Shown in pieces: positions 17,954 through 54,870 of a DNA stretch of 57,575 nucleotides. The notes under the pieces are model-generated. The model made no database searches. It saw only the letters and a program-made list of their open reading frames with translations, and had not been told where the DNA came from. Each line of letters begins with the position of its first letter. The first letter of the stretch is position 1. The stretch comes from an uncultured Dehalococcoidales bacterium. Its GTDB lineage: Bacteria; Chloroflexota; Dehalococcoidia; Dehalococcoidales; UBA5627. The translations under genes were made by a program, and so were the position numbers. Where the stretch lies: contig CAZJVO010000001.1 of NCBI GenBank assembly GCA_964549815.1, forward strand, positions 1 to 57,575, in the 5' to 3' direction.

Positions 17954-18058
17954 ATAACTCTCCTTGGTATTTATACAATTTTATAGCCAGAATTATAGTC
18001 CTATACAAGAGTTAAGGCAAATTGATAAGATGGCATTTCTTTATCCTACCAAACTTGA

Positions 18059-18084
18059 TACCCCGACCGTGAGGTCGTGGGAAG
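18059..18084. repeat. 26-nt hairpin-forming element, copy 1 (TACCCCGACCGTGAGGTCGTGGGAAG)
   Basis: Its reverse complement matches 25566-25591 at 25 of 26 positions; the single difference lies in the loop. Confidence 0.8.
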
Positions 18085-18101
18085 TATATTATGCGGTTTG
18101 G

Positions 18102-18171: not shown

Positions 18172-18627
18172 TTGTCAAGGCCGTTTAAGTGTCGCAGGGT
18201 AGCATATATGCCTGGTGTAACCTATTTCAAACCGGCGGGCATCCCTCTGGGAGCCCTCGAGGAAGTCGTATTATCTCTTGAAGAAGTGGAGGCTTTGCGC
18301 CTTAAAGAGTTGGAGGGGCTGGAGCAGGAGCAGGGCGCCGAAAGAATGAATATCTCCCGCCCGACATTTCAAAGGATTCTGGCTTCGGCGAGGCAAAAAG
18401 TTGCCGATGCCATACTTAACGGCAAGGCAATACGCATTGAGGGTGGTAACTTCGAGATGGCTTTGAACCGGTTCAGGTGTCATGGAGGGCATGAATGGGA
18501 TGCCGATAATGCTGTCGGCACTCCTGCGTTCTGCCCGCAGTGTAACGATACGGATGTTCAACCTGTTTATCCGAAGGGATTCGGTTGCGGTGGGAGGGGC
18601 TACAGACAGTGCCACCGAAGAAAATAG
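18172..18627 (+). CDS. DUF134 (UPF0251) family putative DNA-binding protein with a C-terminal Cys/His extension
   Basis: MSRPFKCRRVAYMPGVTYFKPAGIPL...LSLEEVEALRLKELEGLEQEQGAERMNISRPTFQRILASARQKVADAILNGKAIRIEG matches the DUF134 core. The tail reads CHGGHEW...CPQCND. Confidence 0.8.
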   Translation: MSRPFKCRRVAYMPGVTYFKPAGIPLGALEEVVLSLEEVEALRLKELEGLEQEQGAERMNISRPTFQRILASARQKVADAILNGKAIRIEGGNFEMALNRFRCHGGHEWDADNAVGTPAFCPQCNDTDVQPVYPKGFGCGGRGYRQCHRRK

Positions 18628-18689
18628 AAACGATTTACTATAAATAAACGGAATGTATCCTAAATAGAAATAATAAAAGGAGGTGCACT

Positions 18690-18944
18690 ATGCCGGGATT
18701 TGATGGGACAGGCCCCCGTGGTATGGGGCCGATGACAGGAGGAGGAAGAGGTTTTTGTGTTGTACAGGGGGTGAGGCCTGTGGCGCGTCCGCTCGGTATG
18801 CGGCGCGGAGCCGGATACGGATATGCCAACAGGGTTGTTCCTGCAAGGGATGATGAAATCGATTCTTTGAAGGGCGAAATGCAATTGCTCAGGGATTCTC
18901 TTGGCAGGATAGAAGCGCAGATCGAAAAACTTGCCGGGAAATAA
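18690..18944 (+). CDS. DUF5320 family protein
   Basis: MPGFDGTGPRGMGPMTGGGRGFC N-terminus plus a C-terminal coiled coil (IDSLKGEMQLLRDSLGRIEAQIEKL). Confidence 0.7.
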   Translation: MPGFDGTGPRGMGPMTGGGRGFCVVQGVRPVARPLGMRRGAGYGYANRVVPARDDEIDSLKGEMQLLRDSLGRIEAQIEKLAGK

Positions 18945-18977
18945 ATTTTTGAATCTAAATTCGATAAAGGAGTAATT

Positions 18978-19343
18978 ATGAAAATAGCTGTTTCAGCTAC
19001 TGAACCAAAGCTGGAAGCCGGAGTAGATGAAAGATTCGGGCGTTGTAAGTATTTTGTTATTGTTGATACGGATACCATGGATTTTGAAACGGTAGATAAT
19101 TCCGCTTCGCTAGCTTCCGGCGGCGCTGGAGTTGCAACGGCACAGATGATAGCAGGGAAAGGCGTTGCGGCCGTGCTTACCGGCAATTGCGGCCCCAATG
19201 CGTATCAGGTATTATCGCCTGCCGGTATCAAGGTCATCACCGGGGTTTTCGGAAGTGTTAAGGAAGCAGTCGAGTCTTATAAGGTGGGTAAATATGAAGA
19301 AGCCTCCCAGTCCAATGCCCCCGACCATTTTGGAAAGGGATAG
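18978..19343 (+). CDS. NifB/NifX-family (dinitrogenase FeMo-cofactor-binding domain) protein
   Basis: MKIAVSATEP...VDERFGRCKYFVIVDTDTMDFE...AGKGVAAVLTGNCGPNAYQVL is the typical single-domain NifX-like pattern. Confidence 0.8.
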   Translation: MKIAVSATEPKLEAGVDERFGRCKYFVIVDTDTMDFETVDNSASLASGGAGVATAQMIAGKGVAAVLTGNCGPNAYQVLSPAGIKVITGVFGSVKEAVESYKVGKYEEASQSNAPDHFGKG

Positions 19344-19376
19344 TCTTTAGCAAATAACTGGTTAAGAGGTGGAATT

Positions 19377-19574
19377 ATGCCGAGAGGAGACGTAATGGGG
19401 CCTTCGGGGAACTTATCGCAAAGAGGTGGGCGAATGCAGGGCAATCGCAGGGGAGCCGGAACCGGCGGAAACTGCGTCTGCCCCTCCTGCGGGACAAAGG
19501 TTCCCCATCAGCAGGGAACTCCCTGTTCCAATATGAGCTGCCCGAAATGCGGAACGAGGATGGTCAGGGAATAG
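19377..19574 (+). CDS. Small DUF5320-like protein with a C-terminal zinc ribbon
   Basis: MPRGDVMGPSG start and a Gly/Arg-rich segment, followed by CVCPSCG...CPKCG (four-Cys ribbon). 65 aa. Confidence 0.6.
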   Translation: MPRGDVMGPSGNLSQRGGRMQGNRRGAGTGGNCVCPSCGTKVPHQQGTPCSNMSCPKCGTRMVRE

Positions 19575-19575
19575 A

Positions 19576-20442
19576 ATGATAATATCCGTTGCCAGCGGAA
19601 AGGGAGGGACAGGGAAGACACTCATATCTACCAGCCTTGCCCTTTCCCTGAAAGATGAATTCGAAGTAACGCTTGCCGATTGTGATGTCGAAGAGCCGAA
19701 TGACCATATTTTTCTCAATCCGCAGATTACGGCCAGCGAGCCGGTGTGTGTCCGTGTCCCCGTCATAGCGGAAAAAAAGTGCACTTTCTGCGGTTTGTGC
19801 GCCAGGGTATGCGCTTTCAATGCCATTGCTGTGCTCGGTAATCATATGCTGACTTTCCCACAGCTGTGCCATGGGTGCGGTGCCTGCAGTTACCTCTGCC
19901 CTGAAAAGGCCATAAGCGAAGAATCCAGGCAGATAGGGATTGTCGAACAGGGCAATTCCGGCGTGTTAAAGTTTGTACAGGGCACCCTTACAGTTGGGGA
20001 GGCAATGGCTCCCCCAGTTATCAGCAGGGTCAAAGAGCTGGCAGGGGAAAAGGGGATTGTTATCAGGGATGCCCCTCCGGGAGCTGCCTGCCCGGTAGTT
20101 GAAACAGTGAAAGGCAGCGATTTTTGCCTTCTTTTGACCGAGCCGACTCCGTTCGGTCTCAACGACCTTATCCTGGCGGTGGAAACAGTCAGGACACTGA
20201 ATATACCCTTTGGTGTTGTTATCAACAGGGCAGGGAGCGGTGATGCCGGAGTAGAGGATTATTGCCGCAAAGAAAAAATTCCGGTTCTGCTTACAATTCC
20301 GCTGGATACGGAAATTGCTCGCTTGTATTCGCGCGGTATCGCTCTCGTCAAGGGGATACCGCAGTGGAAGAACGCATTTCTCCGGCTTTTTAACGATATC
20401 AGGGAGGTGACAGGTGCAGGAACTGGTAGTACTCAGCGGTAA
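19576..20442 (+). CDS. MinD/ParA-superfamily P-loop ATPase with inserted 2x[4Fe-4S] ferredoxin domain (paralog A)
   Basis: Deviant Walker A VASGKGGTGKT. Two CxxCxxCxxxCP-type motifs (CTFCGLCARVCAFNAI; CHGCGACSYLCPEKAI). Confidence 0.85.
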   Translation: MIISVASGKGGTGKTLISTSLALSLKDEFEVTLADCDVEEPNDHIFLNPQITASEPVCVRVPVIAEKKCTFCGLCARVCAFNAIAVLGNHMLTFPQLCHGCGACSYLCPEKAISEESRQIGIVEQGNSGVLKFVQGTLTVGEAMAPPVISRVKELAGEKGIVIRDAPPGAACPVVETVKGSDFCLLLTEPTPFGLNDLILAVETVRTLNIPFGVVINRAGSGDAGVEDYCRKEKIPVLLTIPLDTEIARLYSRGIALVKGIPQWKNAFLRLFNDIREVTGAGTGSTQR

Positions 20443-21295
20443 GGGTGGAACGGGAAAAACCAGCATTGTCGGTTCGCTGGCAGCGCTGGCGAAGAGAAAG
20501 GTACTGGTAGATTGCGATATCGATGCGGCCGACCTGCATCTTATTCTTCTGCATCCTTTTATGAAGCAGAAAGAGGAGTTCTGGAGCGGGCAGGTAGCTT
20601 TTATCGACCCGTCGAAGTGCACATGTTGTGGATTATGCCAGAGACTTTGCCGCTTCGAAGCTATAAAAAATTTCGAGGTGGACACGGTATCCTGTGAAGG
20701 CTGTGGTTTTTGCTCGCATATATGCCCGCAGCAGGCAATCACCATGAAAGATAATATGGCGGGGTATATGTTCATTTCCGATACGAGGTACGGCCCGTTG
20801 GTGCATGCCCGTCTGGGGATTGCGCAGGAAAACTCCGGTAAGTTAGTCGCCAGAGTACGCCAGCAGGCAAAAAAGGTGGCTGCAGAAAAAGAGGCGGAAT
20901 ATATCATCTGTGACGGGCCTCCCGGTATCGGCTGTCCGGTTATTTCTTCCCTGTCCGGAGCCAATCTGGCATTACTGGTGGTCGAGCCGACTCTTTCGGG
21001 TATTCACGATATGCAGAGGGTGCTGGAGGTGTGCCGCCATTTCAATGTCCCGGCTGTCGTCTGCATCAATAAATACGATATCAACGAAGAAAATGCACGT
21101 AAAATAGAGAATTGTTGCCGGTCTCAGGATGTAGAAGTCGTAGCCAGAATCCCCTTCGATAACGTAGTAACCGATGCTATGATACAGGGCATTCCGGTAG
21201 TCGAACACTCCGAAGGTGCTGTTGCAGGGGAGATAAAATTGCTCTGGCAGCGGATTTCAGGTATTCTGAAAGCAGGTGAAGTTTCTTCTGAATAA
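20414..21295 (+). CDS. MinD/ParA-superfamily P-loop ATPase with inserted 2x[4Fe-4S] ferredoxin domain (paralog B)
   Basis: GTG start 6 nt after GGAGG. LSGKGGTGKT, CTCCGLCQRLCRFEAI, CEGCGFCSHICPQQAI. Overlaps paralog A by 29 nt. Confidence 0.85.
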   Translation: MQELVVLSGKGGTGKTSIVGSLAALAKRKVLVDCDIDAADLHLILLHPFMKQKEEFWSGQVAFIDPSKCTCCGLCQRLCRFEAIKNFEVDTVSCEGCGFCSHICPQQAITMKDNMAGYMFISDTRYGPLVHARLGIAQENSGKLVARVRQQAKKVAAEKEAEYIICDGPPGIGCPVISSLSGANLALLVVEPTLSGIHDMQRVLEVCRHFNVPAVVCINKYDINEENARKIENCCRSQDVEVVARIPFDNVVTDAMIQGIPVVEHSEGAVAGEIKLLWQRISGILKAGEVSSE

Positions 21296-21317
21296 AAATC
21301 TTTAAAAGGTTAACACT

Positions 21318-21695
21318 ATGCAGAAATTGATAGATGAGTTTATGGGCATGAAACGGTTTGCTGTGGTGGGGGCATCCGATAATCCCGAAAAGTATGGCAA
21401 CAGGATAGTGAAAAATCTTAAAGGCAGGGGTTATGAAGTCTATCCAGTCAATCCGCGGCTCAAGGAAGTCGATGGATTGACCTGCTATGCCAGCCTTGCC
21501 GATATCCCGGTTAAAGTCGACATCGTCGATTTTGTAGTGCCTCCGGTGGTAACCGAAGAGGTTCTGAAACAGTGCAGGGAACTGGGATTGAACCGCATCT
21601 GGCTGCAACCCGGTTCGGAAAGCCAATCGGCAATCGATTACTGCCAAGAGAATAATCTGTATGTTGTGTATAATGTATGTGTCATGATGAATTGA
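21318..21695 (+). CDS. CoA-binding domain protein (YccU/YneT-like)
   Basis: FAVVGASDNPEKYGNRIVKNLKGRGYEVYPVNP...IDIVDFVVPP. 125 aa. Confidence 0.8.
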   Translation: MQKLIDEFMGMKRFAVVGASDNPEKYGNRIVKNLKGRGYEVYPVNPRLKEVDGLTCYASLADIPVKVDIVDFVVPPVVTEEVLKQCRELGLNRIWLQPGSESQSAIDYCQENNLYVVYNVCVMMN

Positions 21696-21758
21696 TAAAA
21701 TATTCAGCGTAAAATCGATAGTATATACAATAAAAATAAATTAAAGGAGTATGGTTTA

Positions 21759-22151
21759 ATGAAATTTGCAATTCCGGTAGTAAACGGTGCCCTTTCGTCA
21801 CATTTCGGTCAGACGACCGAGTTTTTAATCATCGAGGTAAATGATAGCAAGCAGATAGTCGGTAAAGAAACCATGGCCACAGCTTCACATGATTGTCACG
21901 GGACACCGGTATTGCTGGCTCAGCGGGGAGTTAACGTTGTATTAGCCGGCGGTATGGGAATGGGGCCGCGCATGGCTTTTAAAGATAATGGCATAGAAGT
22001 CGTGCTGGGTGTTACCGAGCCTGATCCCGAAACCGCGGTTATCAAGTATCTGCATCACAGGCTGGAGCGGGGTGAAAATGTCTGCGAACACGGCGATACG
22101 GTCTGCGAACATGGCGGGCACCACGATGAACACCATCATGATTGCAATTAA
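21759..22151 (+). CDS. NifB/NifX-family cluster-binding protein with a His/Cys-rich C-terminal tail
   Basis: MKFAIPVVNGALSSHFGQTTEFLIIEV...GVNVVLAGGMGMGP. The tail reads GENVCEHGDTVCEHGGHHDEHHHDCN. Confidence 0.8.
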   Translation: MKFAIPVVNGALSSHFGQTTEFLIIEVNDSKQIVGKETMATASHDCHGTPVLLAQRGVNVVLAGGMGMGPRMAFKDNGIEVVLGVTEPDPETAVIKYLHHRLERGENVCEHGDTVCEHGGHHDEHHHDCN

Positions 22152-22176
22152 CATTTATTAAAGAAAGGGCTATCGC

Positions 22177-22962
22177 TTGAGTTTTATCACTATCGTACTG
22201 CTCTTCCTTGTCGGCATTCTGGCTGGCGGCTTCGGCGGCTTGCTGGGGCTTGGCGGTGGAGCTATAATGCTGCCCATTGTGCGTTTTGGCTTTGGCTTTG
22301 AGCCATCGATTGCTGTAGGGACGACGCTGGTAGCCGTGATTTTTACTGCGGTTTCTGGTGCCTATCAGCACTGGAAACTGGGCAACGTTGATTGGAAATC
22401 AGTAAAATATATCGCTCCGGCAGGTGTTGCCGGGGTGATAGTGGGTTCTGTCTTATTTTATATCATCCGAGATTACACCGAGGTAATCGATTTGATACTC
22501 GGGGTAATTTTTGCCCCCATTGCTCTGAATATGATTTATGAGGGGTTGTTCAGAAGGGGCAAGATGAATTATACGGGCAACGAAATGGCAGGTAGTAACC
22601 TGCTCAAATCTGCAATTGGGGGAGGTGTGGGGGTTTTTACCGGGGTATCCGGTCTTGGAGGTGGGTTTATTCTGGTTCCTGCCTTTGTTTATTTGTTGCA
22701 CTCTCCGGTCAGGATTGCCGTAGGGTCATCGATGGCTTCCTTCGTATGGTTTGCATTGGTGGGGGGCATAATAAAAATCGCACAAGGCCTGTGCGATATT
22801 CCGGCAGCCATTGCTATGGGAGTGGGGGCTATCGGGGGGGCTGTAATCGGGGCAAGGCTTGTCTCTCACATCAAGCCTTCTACTTTAAAATCGATATTCG
22901 GTTTTATCTTTTTATATATATCTTTGAAATATATCTTCAGCTATTTCGGAATATCTATTTAA
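22177..22962 (+). CDS. TauE/SafE (DUF81) family anion exporter-like membrane protein
   Basis: 261 aa, about 8 TM, with Gly-rich repeats (GGFGGLLGLGGGAIMLP; GVSGLGGGFILVPA) typical of TauE/SafE. Confidence 0.8.
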   Translation: MSFITIVLLFLVGILAGGFGGLLGLGGGAIMLPIVRFGFGFEPSIAVGTTLVAVIFTAVSGAYQHWKLGNVDWKSVKYIAPAGVAGVIVGSVLFYIIRDYTEVIDLILGVIFAPIALNMIYEGLFRRGKMNYTGNEMAGSNLLKSAIGGGVGVFTGVSGLGGGFILVPAFVYLLHSPVRIAVGSSMASFVWFALVGGIIKIAQGLCDIPAAIAMGVGAIGGAVIGARLVSHIKPSTLKSIFGFIFLYISLKYIFSYFGISI

Positions 22963-22975
22963 GGAGTTCAGCGGC

Positions 22976-23428
22976 ATGTCTGATAATTTGGATGACCTGG
23001 AAGAACTATTGTTGGGAGAGGAACGCAGAAATTATTCGGCAAAGGCTATTGACCATGCCATGAATCCGCGCAATCTTGGAGTAATGGAAAATGCGGATGT
23101 ATATGCCACTATCACCGGACCCTGCGGAGATACTATAGAAATCTGGCTCAAAATCGACGACAACATCATTTCAAAAGCTACTTTTATGACTGACGGATGC
23201 GGAACAAGCATCGCTTCGGGTAGTATGGTCACCGAACTGGCAAAGGGTAGAGATATCAGGGAAGCAATGACAATCAGCCAGCAGGATATCCTGGATGCCC
23301 TCGACGGCTTGCCTGAAGAAAGCAATCATTGCGCTCTTCTGGCTTCGAATACACTGAAAGCAGCCGTCAGGGAATATATCGATATCAAGAAAGAACCCTG
23401 GAAAAGGGCTTACCGCAAGCAGCAATAA
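22976..23428 (+). CDS. IscU/NifU N-terminal-type Fe-S cluster scaffold protein
   Basis: Three ligand cysteines in the canonical context: GPCGDT, DGCGTSIAS, NHCALLA. Confidence 0.85.
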   Translation: MSDNLDDLEELLLGEERRNYSAKAIDHAMNPRNLGVMENADVYATITGPCGDTIEIWLKIDDNIISKATFMTDGCGTSIASGSMVTELAKGRDIREAMTISQQDILDALDGLPEESNHCALLASNTLKAAVREYIDIKKEPWKRAYRKQQ

Positions 23429-23443
23429 TTCTTCCGAGTTATT

Positions 23444-24202
23444 CTAGTGGCCGTATGGGCAAATCCGGTCTATCCCGGTAATAGCACAGACTGCCGCACC
23501 CGTTATGCCGAAAAGCACCAGTTTTTTGCCGTTTTTGTTTACTCTGGCATTGATATCGTCGAACGAACCGTTGGCAATGGTGCTTCCCGTCGCCAATATT
23601 ACATCGCACCAGTCTATTAATTCCCGCGTCTGCGTTTTTCCGTCCCAGATAATAACACCGGCTTTATTCTGTCCGATATTCTTGGGGTTCATATCGGTAC
23701 AATGAACATTATCTGCTCCGAAAGCCTCTACAAGACTCTCCAGTATTGCCGGTTGCAAACCTATCATTCCTATTTTTACATCGCCGTACTTTTCCCTGAT
23801 TTCATCAGCGATTATGCTGCCACATTTTGCCGGCTCTTCGTCGCGGCAGTGTTTTACTCCCGAAGCAATTCCCAGATGCGATGCGATAGCGTTCAGGGTG
23901 GCTACCATAATAGCTCGATTACTATTGGTATCCAGATTGAAAGACAATATGTCTTCTATGGTTCCTTCGAATTCTTTAGGGCTGTCGGTAAAGGCTTGTC
24001 CGAAGCCACCCCCGAACTGTGCCTGTATCATAACTTCTCTGCCTTCAAGAATGGCATAATCTTTCCTTTCAGTGTTACCGATAGCCTGCAAAGGGGATAA
24101 AGCTCCCACGGTAACTTTAACAGGCTGCCCCTCCGCCTTGTTTTCTTTTACCAGTTCTATCAGCTTGTTCCTGACGATTTGAATCGATGTTAATTCTGTC
24201 AT
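23444..24202 (-). CDS. DUF364-like Rossmann-domain protein (divergent paralog of 50365..51192)
   Basis: The C-terminal half IGMIGLQP...CDVILATGSTIANGSFDDI...LVLFGITGAAV resembles the DUF364 pattern (TGxTxxNxT...GP). Immediately downstream of modA on the same strand. Confidence 0.55.
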   Translation of the reverse strand: MTELTSIQIVRNKLIELVKENKAEGQPVKVTVGALSPLQAIGNTERKDYAILEGREVMIQAQFGGGFGQAFTDSPKEFEGTIEDILSFNLDTNSNRAIMVATLNAIASHLGIASGVKHCRDEEPAKCGSIIADEIREKYGDVKIGMIGLQPAILESLVEAFGADNVHCTDMNPKNIGQNKAGVIIWDGKTQTRELIDWCDVILATGSTIANGSFDDINARVNKNGKKLVLFGITGAAVCAITGIDRICPYGH

Positions 24203-24310
24203 AATTCTGATTTCCCTCTTTTCCTTGTTCTAATTTTTTGTGAGTCTTACTAATTATTTGCTTATGATATATCAACTTTATAAAAAATCCACCTTGGTAA
24301 TATCAAAAAG

Positions 24311-25090
24311 TTATTCACTCTTAACGCTGAAACCGTATGATTCGAATATGTCTATTACCTCTGGGCTGATCAGAAAATCCAGGTAATCGCGGGCAGCTTC
24401 GGCGTTTTCAGATGCGCTGACTATAGCCGTCGGATAGGTTATCTTTGAATTTATTTCAGCGGGGGCAGAAGCCACGGTCATAACCTTATCTGATGTCAGC
24501 GCATCGGTTGAATATACGATACCAGCAACAATATTTCCTGTTTCGACGTAGGCTAATACTTCGCGTACCGTGCTCCCCAAAAGAAGTTTGTCTGCCATAT
24601 CATCACTGATTTCGAGGAGTTCAAAAAGCATCTGGGCATACTCTCCTGCCGGAACAAAAGATGGGTCTCCGATTGCCACAAGTTTGATATTATCGTTTGT
24701 AAGGTCCGTAAAATCAGCAATGTTTTGGGGATTATCGGGGGCGACGATTAAAACCAGGTTGTTTGTAAGAAAATCCCGACGTGTTTCAGATAGAATCATC
24801 CCTTGCTGCTGGAGTGAGTCCATTTGCTTGACTCCTGGTGAAATGAAGATATCACAGATAGCTCCGTTCTCAATCTGCGTTTTTAATGTTCCCGCTGCAG
24901 CGTAATTTGCCTGTATGGTAACATTTGAATTCTGTTCCATATAAAGAGCGTTGATTTCATCAATAACATCTATCATGCCTGCTCCAGCGAATACTGTCAG
25001 CGTGACAGGTTTTTCCTTGCATCCTGGAAGAATGCCGAGGACAAGAGATAGGATTACCAGCGGAATAATTTTTAACAGCGCGTTTTTCAA
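24311..25090 (-). CDS. modA: Molybdate/tungstate ABC transporter substrate-binding lipoprotein ModA
   Basis: TTG start. Lipobox LGILPGC. LTVFAGAGMIDVIDEI...ANYAAAGTLKTQIENGAICDIFISPG...YPTAIV is the typical ModA pattern. Confidence 0.82.
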   Translation of the reverse strand: MKNALLKIIPLVILSLVLGILPGCKEKPVTLTVFAGAGMIDVIDEINALYMEQNSNVTIQANYAAAGTLKTQIENGAICDIFISPGVKQMDSLQQQGMILSETRRDFLTNNLVLIVAPDNPQNIADFTDLTNDNIKLVAIGDPSFVPAGEYAQMLFELLEISDDMADKLLLGSTVREVLAYVETGNIVAGIVYSTDALTSDKVMTVASAPAEINSKITYPTAIVSASENAEAARDYLDFLISPEVIDIFESYGFSVKSE

Positions 25091-25227
25091 TTGTTATACC
25101 CCCGTTTCTTAATAATTACAAAATATATACGTGTCTACTAGTGGCTTTAAGTGGGGAAAAGGGAAGGGGGTATATAGTGGCAACTATATCGCGGCGACTA
25201 TCGATACTTGAAATAAAAGCCGTTTCC

Positions 25228-25345
25228 ATCTGCTCTCCTTTTCCAACGGGAAGCAACACCGTTTCCGGTAATGCCGTCTAGATATTCTATCTACCGGCTG
25301 TTCGCCATGGATTGCTCTTTAGGCAAAACAGCTCCGGAGAAGTCA
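25228..25345 (-). promoter_or_regulatory. Candidate molybdenum-cofactor (Moco) riboswitch in the modA leader
   Basis: Minus strand reads CUUCUCCGGAGC-[hairpin GCUGUUUUGCC..GGCGAACAGC]-[hairpin GCCGGUAGAUAgaaUAUCUAGACGGC]-[hairpin AACGG..CCGUU]-GGAAAAGGAGAGC. The 5' UCUCC pairs with the 3' GGAGA. The multi-stem layout and 3' AAAGGAG resemble the Moco motif as I recall it. Not verified by a covariance model. Confidence 0.45.
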
Positions 25346-25565
25346 AATATTTATTTTATAGCACATACGTTATAATGGTGTCAATATAACGTTTTTGATA
25401 TTATATTCTTTTTATAAAGAAATATTAAAAGAGCCTTTTAAATATGTATTGCGTCTGAAGTTTATAAAAATTGAAATATTCAGATTATTCATTGTGATAG
25501 TATGAATATATCGCCTGTAGAAAAAAACGGGTATTCGGTATAGACTAATATATATCATAAATAAA

Positions 25566-25591
25566 CTTCCCACGACCTTACGGTCGGGGTA
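25566..25591. repeat. 26-nt hairpin-forming element, copy 2 (CTTCCCACGACCTTACGGTCGGGGTA), inverted relative to copy 1
   Basis: 25/26 identical to the reverse complement of 18059-18084. It lies 47 nt upstream of the GTG start of the MBL-fold gene. Confidence 0.8.
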
Positions 25592-25637
25592 TTCGCGTCG
25601 GGGAGTATAAATAAATATAATTTATGAAGGGATAGCT

Positions 25638-26474
25638 GTGGAAATAAAAATCAGTACCTTAAGTGAAAACACAGCGCTTCACGGTTATATCGGAGAATAC
25701 GGCCTGAGTCTTTTTATCGAGGCTGACGGCAAGCGCATCCTGTTCGATACCGGATTGAGTTTTTCCGCTTATCACAACGCCCAGCTAATGGGCATTGATT
25801 TAACTAAAGTCGATTGCATAGTTCTCAGCCATGGTCACCTCGACCATACGGGCGGACTCAGCGAAATGTTGCGCAGAATCGGTAAAGAAATAGGGGTTAT
25901 TGCCCATCCCGATGTACTCGAACCGAGGTATACGCTGCGTGACGGGCAAACGCAGGAAAAATTCATCGGAATGCCCTGTTCAAAAGAGGAACTGGAGAAC
26001 CGCGGCGCAATTTTTACACTGTCCAAAGAGCCCGTATATATAACTTCCAATATAATGACCACCGGGGAAATCCCCATGCTGACCGAGTACGAGAAAGTGG
26101 AAAGCAATCTCCATATTAAAGTCGGGGATGCTTTTCTACCTGATAAAATAGCCGATGATTTATCCCTCATCGTAAATGCAGATTTTGGGATGGTAGTATT
26201 TACCGGATGCGGTCACCGCGGGGTTATCAATATCGTCAGACATTCTCAGAAATTGGCGGGAAATAATAATATCTATGCCGTTATTGGCGGCATCCATCTC
26301 TTCAGAGCTTCGGAGGAGAGGGTTCAAAGGACGATTGCAGAACTCGGAACAATAGGGATAAAAAAGTTGGGAGTTTCCCATTGCACTGGTTTTAAAGCCT
26401 CGGCAAAAATCGCCGACGCATTCCCGAAAGAGTTTTTCTCGAATAACGCCGGAAACAGGTTCGTTCTTCCGTAG
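25638..26474 (+). CDS. MBL-fold metallo-hydrolase (COG1237-like)
   Basis: LSENTALHGYIGEYGLSLFIEADGKRILFDTG...VLSHGHLDHTGG...FTGCGHRGVIN...GGIHL is the beta-lactamase-fold HxHxDH signature. Confidence 0.8.
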   Translation: MEIKISTLSENTALHGYIGEYGLSLFIEADGKRILFDTGLSFSAYHNAQLMGIDLTKVDCIVLSHGHLDHTGGLSEMLRRIGKEIGVIAHPDVLEPRYTLRDGQTQEKFIGMPCSKEELENRGAIFTLSKEPVYITSNIMTTGEIPMLTEYEKVESNLHIKVGDAFLPDKIADDLSLIVNADFGMVVFTGCGHRGVINIVRHSQKLAGNNNIYAVIGGIHLFRASEERVQRTIAELGTIGIKKLGVSHCTGFKASAKIADAFPKEFFSNNAGNRFVLP

Positions 26475-49129: not shown

Positions 49130-50338
49130 ATGCAAAAAGAACAAAAGGACAGGTCGATAAAACTATCAAGGAGGGATTTTATAGCCGGAACGGGAGCGGC
49201 CATTTTACTGGGCGTATTGGGTGGATGCAAGCCCGAAACTATCACATCTACAGTTACTTCTACCAAAACAGCAACACAGGTTAACACGAGTACCGTTTCG
49301 AACGTCTCAACCGTAACTGAGACCATTATCTCCAATATCACCAGTACAAATACCGTTACCAGTACGGTCACTGAAACCGTAACGCCGGCTTCATCGTTTA
49401 CCGTAACCGATATGGCGGGACGCACAGTCGAAATTCCGGCTGTCATTAATAAAATTGCCACATTCGGCTCCATTGGTGTTTTGAATGCTATGGTTGAGAC
49501 TATAGGGTGTGGGTCTAAAATTGCCAACCAGATGTCTGCCAGCTTTACCAAGACGGATAAATGGAAATACCAGTATGTTTTCGCCCCGCAGGTTGCCGAT
49601 GGTCCCGTGCTGGAAGTGGGTGGGGAAATAGACATTGAAGCCGTCCTCCAGCTCGACCCTGATGTTTGCCTGTGTATGACTGAGGCAACGGCAGCTCTTC
49701 TTGAAGAAAAAGGGCTGGCTGTTGTTTATCTTGAATGGCAAACCCTCGATGATGTCGAACCGTGTATCACCTTGCTGGGAGAGATTTTCAGCAAGCAGGA
49801 TATAGCAGCTGATTATATCGAGTACTTTAATAATAAAGTCGCTGAAGCCGAGTCGCTTACTGCAGGGCTTGCCGACGAGGACAAAAAGACAGTCCTGTAT
49901 GGCAACATCACAACTTACACTCAGCCTCATGCTATCGCCGAATGGTGGATTGCCGAAGCAGGTGGTATCAGCGTGACTAATACCGGACGAGATCTGGAAG
50001 CTGTTGCCAGTTATACTTATACGCTTGAAGACCTGCTTTTATGGAATCCCGATGTAATGGTAACTACTGCAAATACGATGGCAGCTGAACTATTGGCAAT
50101 GGATACCCTGAAAAGTATTAATGCTATCAAGAATAACGAAATATATTATATTCCCACCGTAGCGCATGTATGGGGCAATCGTACACCAGAACAGCCACTG
50201 ACAGTATTCTGGATGATGAATAAGCTTTACCCTGATATTATGCCGGTTGATACTCTAAAAGAAGAAATACGCTATTTTTACAGCCATTTCTTCCTTACCA
50301 ATCTGACGGATGAACAACTGATCGAAATTATTGGCTAG
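49130..50338 (+). CDS. Class III (BtuF/FecB-like) substrate-binding lipoprotein, Tat signal, Thr/Ser/Val-rich linker (SBP1)
   Basis: SRRDFIAGTGAAILLGVLGGC (twin-Arg plus lipobox). About 50-aa T/S/V linker. Then FTVTDMAGRTVEIPAVINKIATF...DPDVCL..., typical of periplasmic binding protein family 2. Confidence 0.85.
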   Translation: MQKEQKDRSIKLSRRDFIAGTGAAILLGVLGGCKPETITSTVTSTKTATQVNTSTVSNVSTVTETIISNITSTNTVTSTVTETVTPASSFTVTDMAGRTVEIPAVINKIATFGSIGVLNAMVETIGCGSKIANQMSASFTKTDKWKYQYVFAPQVADGPVLEVGGEIDIEAVLQLDPDVCLCMTEATAALLEEKGLAVVYLEWQTLDDVEPCITLLGEIFSKQDIAADYIEYFNNKVAEAESLTAGLADEDKKTVLYGNITTYTQPHAIAEWWIAEAGGISVTNTGRDLEAVASYTYTLEDLLLWNPDVMVTTANTMAAELLAMDTLKSINAIKNNEIYYIPTVAHVWGNRTPEQPLTVFWMMNKLYPDIMPVDTLKEEIRYFYSHFFLTNLTDEQLIEIIG

Positions 50339-50364: not shown

Positions 50365-51192
50365 GTGGGGAATCCGATACTTATCGATACTATTGAGCAT
50401 GTGAACAGAATTCTGGGAAAGAGCATAGATAATTTGACAGTCGAGCGAGCTGTATTCGGATTGTTCTTCTCCGGGGTTAAATTGAGTGATGGCAACGGCG
50501 GGCTTTGCTTTACCCCTATAAAAGAGATTCCTGAAGCGGTTTGCTGTCCCAGTTCGGCAAAGGCGATGCCACTTTCCGGGAAACTGGCAGGCAGGAGTGT
50601 CAAGGCATATCTGGATGACATATTCGGAGAAAACATACTGAAAAAGACGCTTGGCATTGCTGTATTGAACGCTTTAAGCGCATCGTGCTGGAACATGATG
50701 CCAAATAAGGGTTATGAAATCCAATCCGGCAAGGATGCCTTCGATGACATCGAAATTCTGCCCGGTATTAAATCTGTGGTGGTCGGCGCGCTGGTCCCCA
50801 TAATCAGGAAGCTTATTGCTGCCAAGTCCGATTTCCGCATTCTCGAAATGGATTCATCTACGCTGAAAGAGAAGGAGTTGCCTTATTTTGCCGAAGCAGG
50901 CAGGGCACAGGAATTCGTCCCCGGCGCCGATTTACTGGTTATTACAGGAACGACAGTGCTCAACGACACACTTCCTGGGTTGCTCGAGATGGCAAAACCG
51001 GGGGCGCAAATCATCGTAACCGGCCCTACAGCCAGTATGCTGCCGGAAGCCTTTTTCTGCCGGGGTGTGACGACTCTGGGAGGCATCGTGGTTACCAAAC
51101 CCGACGAATTACTGGATATTATCAGCGAAGGCGGCTCTGGTTATCACTTCTTTGGGAAAAGCGCCGAAAGAACCATTATCAATCGAAAATAA
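50365..51192 (+). CDS. DUF4213/DUF364 protein (putative heavy-metal chelation Rossmann-like family)
   Basis: GVKLSDGNGGLCFT...VVGALVPIIRKL...ADLLVITGTTVLNDTLPGLLEM...IIVTGPTASMLPEAFFCRGVTTLGGIVV...ISEGGSG. Confidence 0.8.
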   Translation: MGNPILIDTIEHVNRILGKSIDNLTVERAVFGLFFSGVKLSDGNGGLCFTPIKEIPEAVCCPSSAKAMPLSGKLAGRSVKAYLDDIFGENILKKTLGIAVLNALSASCWNMMPNKGYEIQSGKDAFDDIEILPGIKSVVVGALVPIIRKLIAAKSDFRILEMDSSTLKEKELPYFAEAGRAQEFVPGADLLVITGTTVLNDTLPGLLEMAKPGAQIIVTGPTASMLPEAFFCRGVTTLGGIVVTKPDELLDIISEGGSGYHFFGKSAERTIINRK

Positions 51193-51207: not shown

Positions 51208-52479
51208 ATGGAATTTATGGAAAATTATCAGGAAGCTCTGGAAAAAGTATTGCAGTATATTCATATACTGGATATCGAAGAGAAACCACTTTTCGATACT
51301 ATCGGGCAGGTCCTTGTTGAAGATGTATATTCGGAATTTGATTTGCCGCTTAAAGACCAGGCCATGCCGGATGGCTATGCTGTAAGGTCTGCAGATATAA
51401 CATATGCCAGTGATAAAAATCCGGTCAGCCTGTGTATTATCGAGACGGTGAGGGCAGGTTATCTGCCTAAAAACAGGATAAAAAGCGGGACTGCAATCCG
51501 CATCATGACCGGCGCTGTTATGCCAGAGGGGGCCGATTGTGTTGTCAGGTTTGAATTTACTGATGAGCCCGGTAACAAAAGCGGGCCGAACTACAACAAT
51601 CCGACAGAAGTTAAGGTATATAGGGCAGTCGATTCGGGAACAGGTATATCCAGGAAGGGGATGAGCGTCAAGAAAGGAATGCTGGTTTTATCTAAAGGGG
51701 TAACGATAGGCCCTGCCCAGATTTCCGTATTGGCGACAATCGGGAAAACCATGGTGAAGGTTATCCGCCGCCCGGTTATAGCGGTGATTTCTTCTGGGGA
51801 CGAACTAATCGAACTGGGGCAACCCCTGTCACCAGGCAAATCCTACAACTGTAATGAGATGGCAATTGCCTCCTTGGTCTCCCATTACGGCGGTATCCCG
51901 AAGGTATTGGGCATTGCCAGTGATAGCGAGAAATCGGTTAGCGATAAAATCAAAAGGGGAATGAGAGCAGATGCCATTATTACCAGTGGCGGCGTTTCTA
52001 AAGGTGATTTCGACCTTGTTCGCAGTGTGTTAAATAAGCTGGGGGAAGTGGTCTTTACGAGGGTCGAAGTAGGGCCTGGCGCCTCTGTATCTTTCGGATA
52101 TGTAATTAAAGAAGATGAAAAACGGAGAGGTTCAACTATTCCGGTGTTTGCCCTTGCAGGCCCTCCCGCAGGGTGCTTAATTAATTTCGAAATGCTTGTC
52201 AGACCATCGATATTCAAGATGATGGGGAAGAACAATATAGAACATACTATGATAGAGGCGGTCGCAAAGGATGTTGCACCTGCAAAAATGCCAATGACCT
52301 TTGCCAGATGGTCGAGATTGGAAAAAGAAAATGGGGATTACAGCGTCGAGATAAGCAGAGTCGAAACTTCAGGTGCGCTAGCTGCTATAGGGTCTGCCAA
52401 CGCTCTTACTTTCATTCCGAAGGGAACGGTGATTAACAGGGGGGATAGAATTCCCGTATTACCACTTGATTGGTCATAA
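51208..52479 (+). CDS. moeA: Molybdopterin molybdotransferase MoeA
   Basis: YQEALEKVL..., IRIMTGAVMPEGADCVV, VIAVISSGDEL, AIITSGGVSKGDFDLV, GLPGNP-equivalent ALAGPPAGCL. 423 aa. Confidence 0.88.
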   Translation: MEFMENYQEALEKVLQYIHILDIEEKPLFDTIGQVLVEDVYSEFDLPLKDQAMPDGYAVRSADITYASDKNPVSLCIIETVRAGYLPKNRIKSGTAIRIMTGAVMPEGADCVVRFEFTDEPGNKSGPNYNNPTEVKVYRAVDSGTGISRKGMSVKKGMLVLSKGVTIGPAQISVLATIGKTMVKVIRRPVIAVISSGDELIELGQPLSPGKSYNCNEMAIASLVSHYGGIPKVLGIASDSEKSVSDKIKRGMRADAIITSGGVSKGDFDLVRSVLNKLGEVVFTRVEVGPGASVSFGYVIKEDEKRRGSTIPVFALAGPPAGCLINFEMLVRPSIFKMMGKNNIEHTMIEAVAKDVAPAKMPMTFARWSRLEKENGDYSVEISRVETSGALAAIGSANALTFIPKGTVINRGDRIPVLPLDWS

Positions 52480-53700: not shown

Positions 53701-54870
53701 ATGGAAGAAAAAAAGAAATCGATAGTCTCACGCAGAACTTTTATTGCAGGGTCGGGCGCGTTGCTCTTGTCTGCTTTACTTGGCGGATGCAAGCAGGAGA
53801 CCCTTACTTCTACCGTTACGTCTACTAAAACCAGCACATTACTCAATACCATTACCAATGTCTTGACTACGACCGAAACGGTAACGGTTACCGAGGCTGC
53901 ATCTCAACCGGCAACCAGGGTAATTACAGATATGGCGGGGAACCATGTTACCGTTCCCTACGAAATTAACAGAATTGTGATTACCTGTTACGGCGGAGCC
54001 ACCCATGAAGTTGCAGCAATGGGTGCCGCATCCAAAATAGTGGCACAACCTAATATGAATACATTTCCGGCATTTTTAAGAATGTACCCCGAATTTAGTG
54101 AAATTCCTTTTGTCGGCTCGTTTTCCGATGTGAACATCGAGGAGTTGCTGGAATTAAATCCGGATGTGGTTATCGCCAGTATGACCAGCATGCAGATGAA
54201 TCATGAAATTGCCGAAGTCGGGGTTCCGGTAATCTCGATTTATACATCAATGTACAGTGTTGCCACCGACCTTGAGAAAGAATTCAGCATGATGGGGCAG
54301 TTACTCAATAATACCGAAAAATCGGATGAGTTAAATAATTTCTGGAATCAACAACTGCAGGTAATTGACGAGCATTTACAGAATATCTCTGTTGAAGACC
54401 GGAAAAAAGTTTACTATTCCATCGGCCCTTTGACTCGTACTACCGGCAACACGTTATGGGGGCATGCCTTGATTACTGCAGCGGGCGGAATAAATGTCGG
54501 GGAACAACTTGAAGGAACTCTGAATATTGATGCCGAGCAAATAATTGAATGGAATCCGGATGTAATAATAATCAGGAGAGGGTCTGGTACTGGTTTGGTC
54601 AATATCAGCGATTTTACAGATAATGTCCAGATGCAAGGTATAAACGCAGTAAAAAATAACCAGGTATACGGTTGTCCCATCGGCAGTTTCTGGTGGGATT
54701 GTCCTGCTCCCGAGATGATTCTGGGAATAGTATGGCTGGCAAAAACACTCTATCCTGAACAACTGGCAGATATCGAACTTGAAGCCCTGACTAAAAGTTT
54801 TTACAGGCAATTCTATGACTATGAACTGACTACTGAGGAGTTCGAGGGGTTTTTGTCACAGGATTCATAA
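53701..54870 (+). CDS. Class III substrate-binding lipoprotein, Tat signal, T/S/V linker (SBP2)
   Basis: SRRTFIAGSGALLLSALLGGC. RVITDMAGNHVTVPYEINRIVITCYGGATHEVAAMGAASKIVAQP. Paralog of SBP3. Confidence 0.85.
   Translation: MEEKKKSIVSRRTFIAGSGALLLSALLGGCKQETLTSTVTSTKTSTLLNTITNVLTTTETVTVTEAASQPATRVITDMAGNHVTVPYEINRIVITCYGGATHEVAAMGAASKIVAQPNMNTFPAFLRMYPEFSEIPFVGSFSDVNIEELLELNPDVVIASMTSMQMNHEIAEVGVPVISIYTSMYSVATDLEKEFSMMGQLLNNTEKSDELNNFWNQQLQVIDEHLQNISVEDRKKVYYSIGPLTRTTGNTLWGHALITAAGGINVGEQLEGTLNIDAEQIIEWNPDVIIIRRGSGTGLVNISDFTDNVQMQGINAVKNNQVYGCPIGSFWWDCPAPEMILGIVWLAKTLYPEQLADIELEALTKSFYRQFYDYELTTEEFEGFLSQDS

Follow-up and report, generated by a model that had tools for sequence, protein, structure and literature searches.

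A candidate accessory molybdenum-acquisition operon that pairs a ModA paralogue with a divergent DUF364 protein behind a Moco riboswitch

The ModA paralogue ModA2 and the DUF364-like protein D364L of an uncultured Dehalococcoidales bacterium are, in our reading, the products of a two-gene accessory molybdenum-acquisition operon that is turned off by the molybdenum cofactor (Moco) through a P3-type riboswitch; we put the probability of this reading at roughly 0.6. Both genes lie on the minus strand of the window, the 57,575-nt stretch of DNA analysed here, which forms contig 1 of a draft genome of 1.4 Mb that is 91% complete. D364L denotes the DUF364-like gene at 23444–24202 and its protein, ModA2 the ModA of the window, and ModA1 the ModA on contig 55. 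An earlier note on this DNA had described a TTG-start ModA gene with a lipobox, followed after 108 nt on the same strand by a DUF364-like gene, and the sequence and the matches to TIGR01256 and PF04016 confirm this arrangement. A Moco riboswitch before modA, and DUF364 genes in the neighbourhood of molybdate/tungstate (Mo/W) uptake genes, are already known (PMC2954201; bioRxiv 10.1101/2024.03.05.583561). New are the definition of the D364L subfamily, its near-constant pairing with binding proteins that lack side-chain oxyanion donors, the riboswitch statistics, the cassette structure of the locus and the co-localisation with orange protein (ORP)-type clusters.

The riboswitch that the note had proposed in the minus-strand leader is recognised by its covariance model. 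The match to RF01055 scores 57.8 bits (E 2.6e-11), the gathering score being 36, and covers model positions 1–135, the full model. The aptamer comprises P1 (CUUCUCC/GGAGAG), P2 with a tetraloop-receptor-like CCUAAAG...CAUGG bulge, the P3 hairpin, P4, which is capped by a GAAA loop, and P5, which is short. Its sequence is almost unchanged in the loci L018–L021. Aptamers with P3 are classed as 'Moco' and those without it as 'Tuco' (Regulski 2008, PMC2408646). The genome holds three Moco riboswitches in all, before modA2, before modA1-modB-modC on contig 55, and before moaA on contig 98, the last gene being identified by its Radical_SAM and Mob_synth_C domains. Both modA riboswitches contain P3; the one before moaA (contig 98, 3095–3217; L005:1501–1623) has no P3 and is thus of the 'Tuco' type of Regulski 2008.

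The aptamer belongs to the same family as that of the E. coli moaABCDE Moco riboswitch (PMC2408646) and has in common with it P1–P5, the GAAA tetraloop and P3, as well as the position upstream of molybdenum genes. In both, the 3′ strand of P1 carries a purine-rich AAGGAG resembling a ribosome-binding site (RBS), with an AUG a few nucleotides on. Switching off through an RBS enclosed in P1 has been described (Regulski 2008, PMC2408646), and by analogy the window aptamer would be expected to be an OFF switch. The two differ in what follows P1. In the window, what the AUG past P1 opens is a leader open reading frame (ORF) of 37 codons. The start codon of modA2 itself, the gene under control, lies at the end of a leader of 130 nt, and the modA2 Shine-Dalgarno (SD) sequence is predicted to be paired to a pyrimidine tract within the leader ORF.

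The transcription start, as placed by a sigma-70-type promoter read from the sequence, would lie close to the 5′ end of the aptamer. An automatic scan missed this promoter because it demands T at position 6 of the −10 element. The promoter block (25395–25356) is kept in L019–L021, and it reappears at 31 of 40 nt in the syntenic locus L023, which has neither modA2 nor the riboswitch and whose D364L is 82% identical to that of the window. There the block stands directly before D364L. The SD/start block of L023 matches the window from 24222 on, the 3′ end of the modA2–D364L spacer being homologous to the 5′ untranslated region of the L023 D364L gene, and the distance between the promoter and SD/start blocks is 33 nt in L023 and 1,133 nt in the window. 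Thus the aptamer, leader and modA2 together make up a 1.1-kb cassette between a promoter and D364L. In L018 an orthologous aptamer occupies the same slot, and the genes behind it encode a binding protein of the NMT1_2 type, a permease, an ATPase and D364L, in this order. These two arrangements speak for D364L being transcribed from the promoter that the riboswitch controls; modA2 and D364L most likely share one transcript, in line with the co-transcription that the note had assumed. The automatic scan for promoters and terminators found nothing convincing in the spacer, and a hairpin with a U-rich tail past D364L is likely the end of the operon. The comparison of the slots shows D364L as the constant partner of interchangeable uptake modules.

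The neighbourhoods of D364L in other genomes carry the link to Mo/W. The comparison covers 80 loci from species-representative genomes, 6 of them truncated, spread over Chloroflexota, Bacillota, Desulfobacterota, a gammaproteobacterium and archaea. Mod-type uptake genes stand on the D364L strand in 53 of the loci, and the connection of DUF364 to Mo/W handling that the note had drawn is strongly borne out for this gene. At least two Mod-like ATP-binding cassette (ABC) components lie on the same strand in 25 loci, the order ModA-ModB-ModC-D364L being typical in Clostridia, Desulfovibrionaceae, Reinekea and Asgard/Bathyarchaeia; a ModA-like lipoprotein stands alone directly upstream in 22, its stop codon frequently overlapping the start codon of the next gene; and 6 have one Mod component. 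Judged from gene order, the layout of a binding protein and D364L without a permease is a recurrent module and not an accident. Classified by Pfam, the gene directly upstream of D364L is SBP_bac_11 in 24 loci, ABC_tran in 24 and DUF4213/DUF364 in 9. RF01055 elements, of both the P3-containing and the P3-less type, precede D364L on its strand in 17 of the 80 loci; 10 of these 17 were run again against Rfam, and all their elements scored above the gathering score. MobA-like, MoCF_biosynth, MOSC and XdhC genes are further neighbours. The recurrence of the pairing in many anaerobes points to an undescribed step in Mo/W handling.

DUF364 genes occur twice over in some of these loci. The ModA-like gene or D364L is directly preceded by a canonical DUF4213/DUF364 gene in some 15 loci of Dehalococcoidales (L027–L029, L031, L033–L035, L042–L044, L046, L048, L053, L056 and L057). 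In the window itself a canonical DUF4213+DUF364 gene (50365–51192) is followed directly by MoeA (51208–52479), as the note had stated, and with PF04016 the genome's three paralogues reach about 137 bits.

A DUF364-family gene within a molybdate or tungstate uptake operon is also seen in Methanococcus maripaludis, whose operon reads modA-modB-DUF364-modC (Day et al. 2024, bioRxiv 10.1101/2024.03.05.583561), and among the genome contexts with molybdate/tungstate transporters collected for DUF364 (Miller et al. 2010, PMC2954201). D364L belongs to a divergent subfamily, with PF04016 over half the protein, DUF4213 undetected and an HC...C...C signature, in which it may differ from the methanogen protein. 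It differs from these cases in being paired with a binding protein alone, under a riboswitch.

The binding protein of the window is a ModA by descent. It exceeds the TIGR01256 equivalog cut-off of 62.5 bits (171.5 bits), has the lipobox LPGC, is 59% identical to ModA1 and finds its best Protein Data Bank (PDB) match in 4KD5 (177 bits). Like the ModA proteins of ModABC importers (E. coli, 1AMF; C. difficile type, 4KD5) it is a cluster-D lipoprotein of the ModA family, in which Y170 as well as the motifs VPAG and TVR are still present. It differs from that system in that no modB or modC adjoins its gene. The profile TIGR02141 (ModB) finds no permease of this type in the window and matches only contigs 55 and 48 in the genome. 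Contig 55 bears a complete locus, riboswitch-modA1-modB-modC (ModB, 254 bits), which is the sole ModB/ModC pair in the 91%-complete genome. The 'orphan modA' of the note is therefore an orphan within the window, and the genome does have a modBC pair. The note had held that a cognate modBC elsewhere, together with DUF364 neighbours unrelated to molybdenum in other genomes, would speak against its reading; the pair exists on contig 55, whereas the neighbours of D364L are overwhelmingly molybdenum-related. Close relatives without modA2 beside D364L have one ModA, and the genomes of L019 and L021, with modA2, have at least two, which makes ModA2 an accessory second binding protein. Most plausibly it docks to the one ModBC of the genome.

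The oxyanion pocket sets ModA2 apart. The lobe-A residues of E. coli ModA whose side chains reportedly give hydrogen bonds to the oxyanion are S12 and S39 (Hu et al. 1997). In the alignment to E. coli ModA (1AMF/3R26) and 4KD5, ModA2 has Gly and Ala at these two positions and keeps Y170, so that neither side-chain donor is present; ModA1 keeps both Ser and Y170. The equivalents in P. aeruginosa ModA are Asn33 and Thr60 (PMC9171197). Ordinary ModAs were taken from evenly sampled Dehalococcoidia (L098–L137), of which 33 of 40 were counted and 7 wrong-frame fragments left out. Position 12 is S, D or N in all 33, never Gly, and position 39 is S or T with about one exception, Ala occurring in at most one. 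In the D364L-linked binding proteins of other lineages, position 12 is Gly throughout, position 39 either Gly or Ala, and position 170 Trp. They are remote relatives of ModA (TIGR01256 57–76 bits; no solved structure matched above 61 bits), all with signal or lipobox sequences. As far as the alignment tells, ModA2 is of canonical ModA descent and has acquired the pocket signature of the D364L-associated binding proteins. The loss of both side-chain hydrogen-bond donors makes it probable that ModA2 serves a Mo/W species or a concentration range unlike that of ModA1.

An identity of the D364L-linked binding proteins as WtpA or TupA was considered and rejected, their matches being those weak or borderline ones to ModA. 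Among the ordinary Dehalococcoidia ModAs two pocket types were seen, one E. coli-like (AAASL...Y170) and one with Asp at 12 and Ala at 170 (AA[AS]DL...VALS), possibly a carboxylate-ligand type. ModA1 (contig 55, 6489–7430; L007:355–1296) has a Thr/Ser-rich tether of about 55 residues past the lipobox, whereas ModA2 is almost without one; such tethers are also present on other binding lipoproteins of the window, e.g. those at 49130–50338 and 53701–54870.

The same facts might be taken to mean that modA2 is a redundant or decaying duplicate beside an unrelated gene, D364L being expressed alone and the linkage in the window without functional meaning. The 108-nt spacer would fit this, as would the close relatives L022 and L023, which have D364L and lack modA2 and the riboswitch, and the lost side chains of the pocket could reflect relaxed selection. 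However, the three relatives L019–L021 keep modA2 at 450–475 bits, with an intact frame, the lipobox and the TTG start, the same pocket changes recur in unrelated binding proteins linked to D364L, no promoter was detected in the spacer, and binding-protein or ABC genes and riboswitches precede D364L as often as counted above. We therefore regard decay as very unlikely, and the two-gene operon stays the preferred reading.

D364L was placed by fold comparison only, since by sequence it matched no PDB chain at E≤1 and no NCBIfam family. PF04016 reaches 47.1 bits against a cut-off of 23 but covers residues 136–234 only (profile positions 6–97 of 147), and hhalign against canonical DUF364 gives 96% probability over residues 82–234. 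The N-terminal region has no match to PF13938 (DUF4213). An AlphaFold2 model built with 28 homologues (pLDDT 86.6) has 3NPG (E 6e-8, TM 0.54) and 3L5O as its top Foldseek matches over the full length, the alignment to 3NPG spanning 251 columns for the 252-residue model. No signal peptide was found. The model thus presents D364L as a true, divergent member of the DUF364 family, with the two-domain fold, putatively enolase-N-like plus Rossmann-like, of Dhaf4260 (3L5O) and PH1506 (3NPG), at TM ~0.54, and of the enzyme Orf5 (PMC12930334). It differs from these in its low identity (14–20%) and in its loop 118–127, and its surroundings contain no natural-product genes.

Across 81 species-level D364L sequences from Bacteria and Archaea, with 35–100% identity, the invariant residues are G42, G68, Q69, T72, N104, H118, C119, C127, G148, Q150, P151, D170, T205, S207, N211, G232 and C248. 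The Rossmann-type motifs, namely D170 past strand beta-2, the G148-x-Q-P loop and T205-x-S...N211, are common to D364L and canonical DUF364; the loop with H118, C119 and C127 has no counterpart in the latter. On these alignments D364L is a distinct DUF364 subfamily, marked by the invariant H118, C119, C127 and C248, and the signature of one His and three Cys suggests a metal or metal-sulfur site. The four residues make the subfamily a recognisable marker of a gene that is accessory yet highly Mo/W-linked. Work on D364L, a protein of 28 kDa, and on its binding proteins could give a function to two 'unknown' families and throw light on the Mo/W supply of anaerobes in sulfidic settings.

The note had called the DUF364 protein a putative chelation enzyme. 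This goes back to a Pfam label and not to a finding; synthesis of a chelating compound was put forward by Miller et al. 2010 (PMC2954201), and the sole characterised DUF364 enzyme is Orf5 (MeAZE synthase), an azetidine synthase that cyclises S-adenosylmethionine (SAM) and acts on SAM derivatives (PMC12930334). One might nevertheless suppose that D364L, like Orf5, is a SAM-using enzyme making a small ligand that complexes Mo or W, and that the altered binding proteins import the complex. The DUF364 fold with its Rossmann core, the three motifs common to canonical DUF364, the enlarged pocket of the binding proteins and the tandem of canonical DUF364 and D364L in about 15 Dehalococcoidales loci speak for such an enzyme, as do the chemistry of Orf5 and the proposal of Miller et al. 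On the other hand, no exporter or further biosynthetic gene is consistently linked to D364L, and the linked binding proteins are still cluster-D proteins of ModA size. The HC...C loop, absent from canonical DUF364, makes catalytic equivalence doubtful. We know of no such Mo/W ligand from these anaerobes. On balance a ligand-making role seems improbable, and we keep to D364L as a handler of the metal itself within the operon.

Beside D364L, and convergent with it, the window contains an operon (18172–23428) with matches to Nitro_FeMo-Co, MrpORP-like proteins and paired CbiA/ParA-Fer4 ATPases. In their Nitro_FeMo-Co proteins and paired ferredoxin-MinD ATPases these genes resemble the ORP complex and the orp operons of Desulfovibrio (PMC6345978, PMC8359166). 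ModA2 and D364L differ in coming from other families and in being no described ORP components, so that gene neighbourhood is the only tie. With the proteins of the window as queries, ORP-domain (Nitro_FeMo-Co) proteins turned up no further than 6 kb from D364L in 31 of the 80 loci; for paired MinD-Fer4 ATPases the count is 23. In several Dehalococcoidales the ORP-type genes come right after D364L on its strand, and the cluster lies directly downstream in L024, L027, L028, L030, L035 and L058. In an Oscillospiraceae genome (L063), and likewise in Reinekea marinisedimentorum (L070), the cluster, ModABC and D364L run in this order on one strand. No paper linking ORP clusters to Mod-type uptake genes or to DUF364 was found in the literature searched, coverage of which was partial. 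The neighbourhood matters because the cellular role of ORP has been open for two decades.

These clusters bear on a further explanation, by which the module feeds a sulfur-rich Mo pool and not primarily Moco. The Gly/Ala pockets would admit thiomolybdate or thiotungstate, the forms of sulfidic habitats; the His/Cys site of D364L would bind or desulfurise them and give Mo-S units to ORP-type proteins, and the riboswitch would merely report Mo status. The presence of ORP-type clusters in 31 loci across phyla, often on the strand of ModABC-D364L or directly downstream, argues in this direction, together with the absence of side-chain donors from every linked binding protein and the three invariant Cys and one invariant His of D364L. 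According to references 21, 22, 31 and 32, so far as PMC6345978 relays them, the D. gigas ORP binds a thiomolybdate-derived S2MoS2-Cu-S2MoS2 cluster. There is however dispute over the physiological cofactor of ORP, and in recent work the complex is connected with Fe-S (PMC6345978). Moreover, control by Moco/Tuco riboswitches suits cofactor supply better, and the MoeA-type, MobA-like, XdhC and MOSC neighbours point to enzymes with pterin cofactors. We consider a primarily sulfur-rich destination unlikely, cofactor supply by the accessory operon being the reading that we prefer.

How the operon might be switched is suggested by the leader. An ATG stands 5–6 nt past AAGGAGA in nine of nine P3-bearing Dehalococcoidales aptamers examined, and ORFs of 27–37 codons begin at the same leader AUG in L019–L021; the small ORF (sORF) of the window is probably translated. 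The pyrimidine tract that it spans is predicted to pair with the modA2 SD both in the minimum free energy structure and in the ensemble, with an unpaired probability of 0, and the RNAalifold consensus over 4 sequences contains this helix with 2 compensatory pairs. On binding of Moco, P1 would close over the SD-like AAGGAGA and the following AUG, as in E. coli moaA. When Moco is low the leader ORF would be translated, and the ribosomes would open the helix of the pyrimidine tract and free the modA2 RBS. Two other platforms were set aside. A purely RNA-based three-part switch among the 3′ strand of P1, the pyrimidine tract and the SD finds no support as such, since folding with the 5′ strand of P1 blocked leaves the SD paired. 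The terminator-like CCGUU...AACGG with the U-run CUUUUAUUU, which the note had offered as an expression platform, was rejected: its stem of 5 bp carries a loop of 20 nt, the terminator scan did not report it, and L021 keeps neither the pairing nor the U-run.

The surface lipoprotein ModA2 would then hand its ligand to ModBC as the second binding protein of one importer. In the cytoplasm D364L may receive or process the imported metal at its His/Cys site, on a DUF364 scaffold of the nucleotide- or SAM-type Rossmann kind, and may pass it on to cofactor assembly (MoeA etc.) or to neighbouring ORP/NifX-like carrier proteins. More speculatively, the HC...C...C subfamily of DUF364, the donor-less binding proteins and the ORP-type cluster could constitute a conserved, anaerobe-specific route of Mo/W uptake and handling, parallel to canonical ModABC and tied to the cofactor status by Moco/Tuco riboswitches, into which the metal may enter as thio-oxyanions; in this breadth we regard the proposal as doubtful. 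Were it true, DUF364 and the long-enigmatic orange-protein complex would gain a physiological role in Mo/W trafficking.

Several points weigh against the operon as proposed. We infer co-transcription across the 108-nt spacer. The modA2 SD stays paired in thermodynamic folding whether P1 forms or not, so the switch is not explicable by RNA refolding alone, which is the reason for proposing coupling through the sORF; this step is a hypothesis drawn from four close relatives, a small sample, and paralogous leaders do not share a conserved sORF peptide. Pocket residues of ModA differ among species (PMC9171197), hence the loss of the side chains need not alter specificity, and a change of ligand is likewise our inference. 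No Mod-like neighbour was detected in 21 of the 80 D364L loci, 9 of which have a canonical DUF364 upstream. Finally, D364L is patchy, with 6 of 121 evenly sampled Dehalococcoidia genomes positive, and thus is not a core step of Moco synthesis. ModA is present in 70 of these 121 genomes; the D364L positives are too few for a meaningful correlation with ModA, and the neighbourhood evidence was used for this reason.

Table 1. Elements of the modA2–D364L locus, in order of transcription
Feature	Position in window	Strand	Description and basis
Sigma-70-type promoter	25355–25384	−	−35 TTGACA (25384–25379), 18-nt spacer, extended −10 TGc-TATAAA with −10 hexamer at 25360–25355; read from sequence
Moco riboswitch aptamer, RF01055	25220–25350	−	P3-containing ('Moco') type; cmscan
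Leader sORF	25116–25229	−	37 codons; AUG 5 nt past SD-like AAGGAGA of P1 3′ strand; spans pyrimidine tract
Pyrimidine tract	25153–25171	−	ACCCCCUUCCCUUUUCCCC; predicted anti-SD; folding
modA2 SD region	25098–25105	−	ACGGGGGU; sequence, folding and consensus helix
modA2	24311–25090	−	TTG-start lipoprotein, ModA paralogue with atypical oxyanion pocket; TIGR01256 171.5 bits, PF13531 196 bits
Spacer modA2/D364L	24203–24310	−	108 nt; SD AAAAGAGGG at its 3′ end
D364L	23444–24202	−	252 codons; divergent DUF364-fold cytoplasmic protein; PF04016 47 bits
Terminator-like hairpin with U-rich tail	23394–23410	−	34 nt past D364L stop codon; terminator scan

Some observations concern the surroundings of the locus. 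A 33-nt hairpin (core CCCCGACCGTRAGGTCGTGGGAAG) occurs at 18058–18090 and 25560–25592, flanking the block of the ORP genes and modA2. It is a dispersed repeat resembling repetitive extragenic palindromic (REP) elements: many contigs of the draft carry it, with at least 30 copies in all when up to 4 mismatches are allowed. A bracketing specific to this block is therefore improbable and was rejected. Divergent from the modA2 promoter region lies a gene of the metallo-beta-lactamase (MBL) fold (25638–26474, plus strand), which is syntenic in L018–L021 and L023 (about 510 bits) and stands near D364L again in the distant loci L061, L066, L072 and L080.

With respect to potential users of the cofactor, the genome encodes four PF00384 Mo/W-bisPGD enzymes, and no protein of the AOR family was detected in it. 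In G017, a complete 1.5-Mb genome of the same order, thirteen RF01055 matches exceed the gathering score, an unusually high number, and its D364L gene has genes of ModA-like binding proteins on both flanks.

The loci L018 (2565–5728), L014 (799–5004) and L065 (720–3718) each consist of a Moco riboswitch, a binding protein of the NMT1_2/PBP_like type, a BPD_transp_1 permease, an ABC ATPase and D364L. By their gene content they are candidates for an uncharacterised type of Mo/W ABC importer. In L014 a MoCF_biosynth gene stands directly past the riboswitch, ahead of the binding protein.

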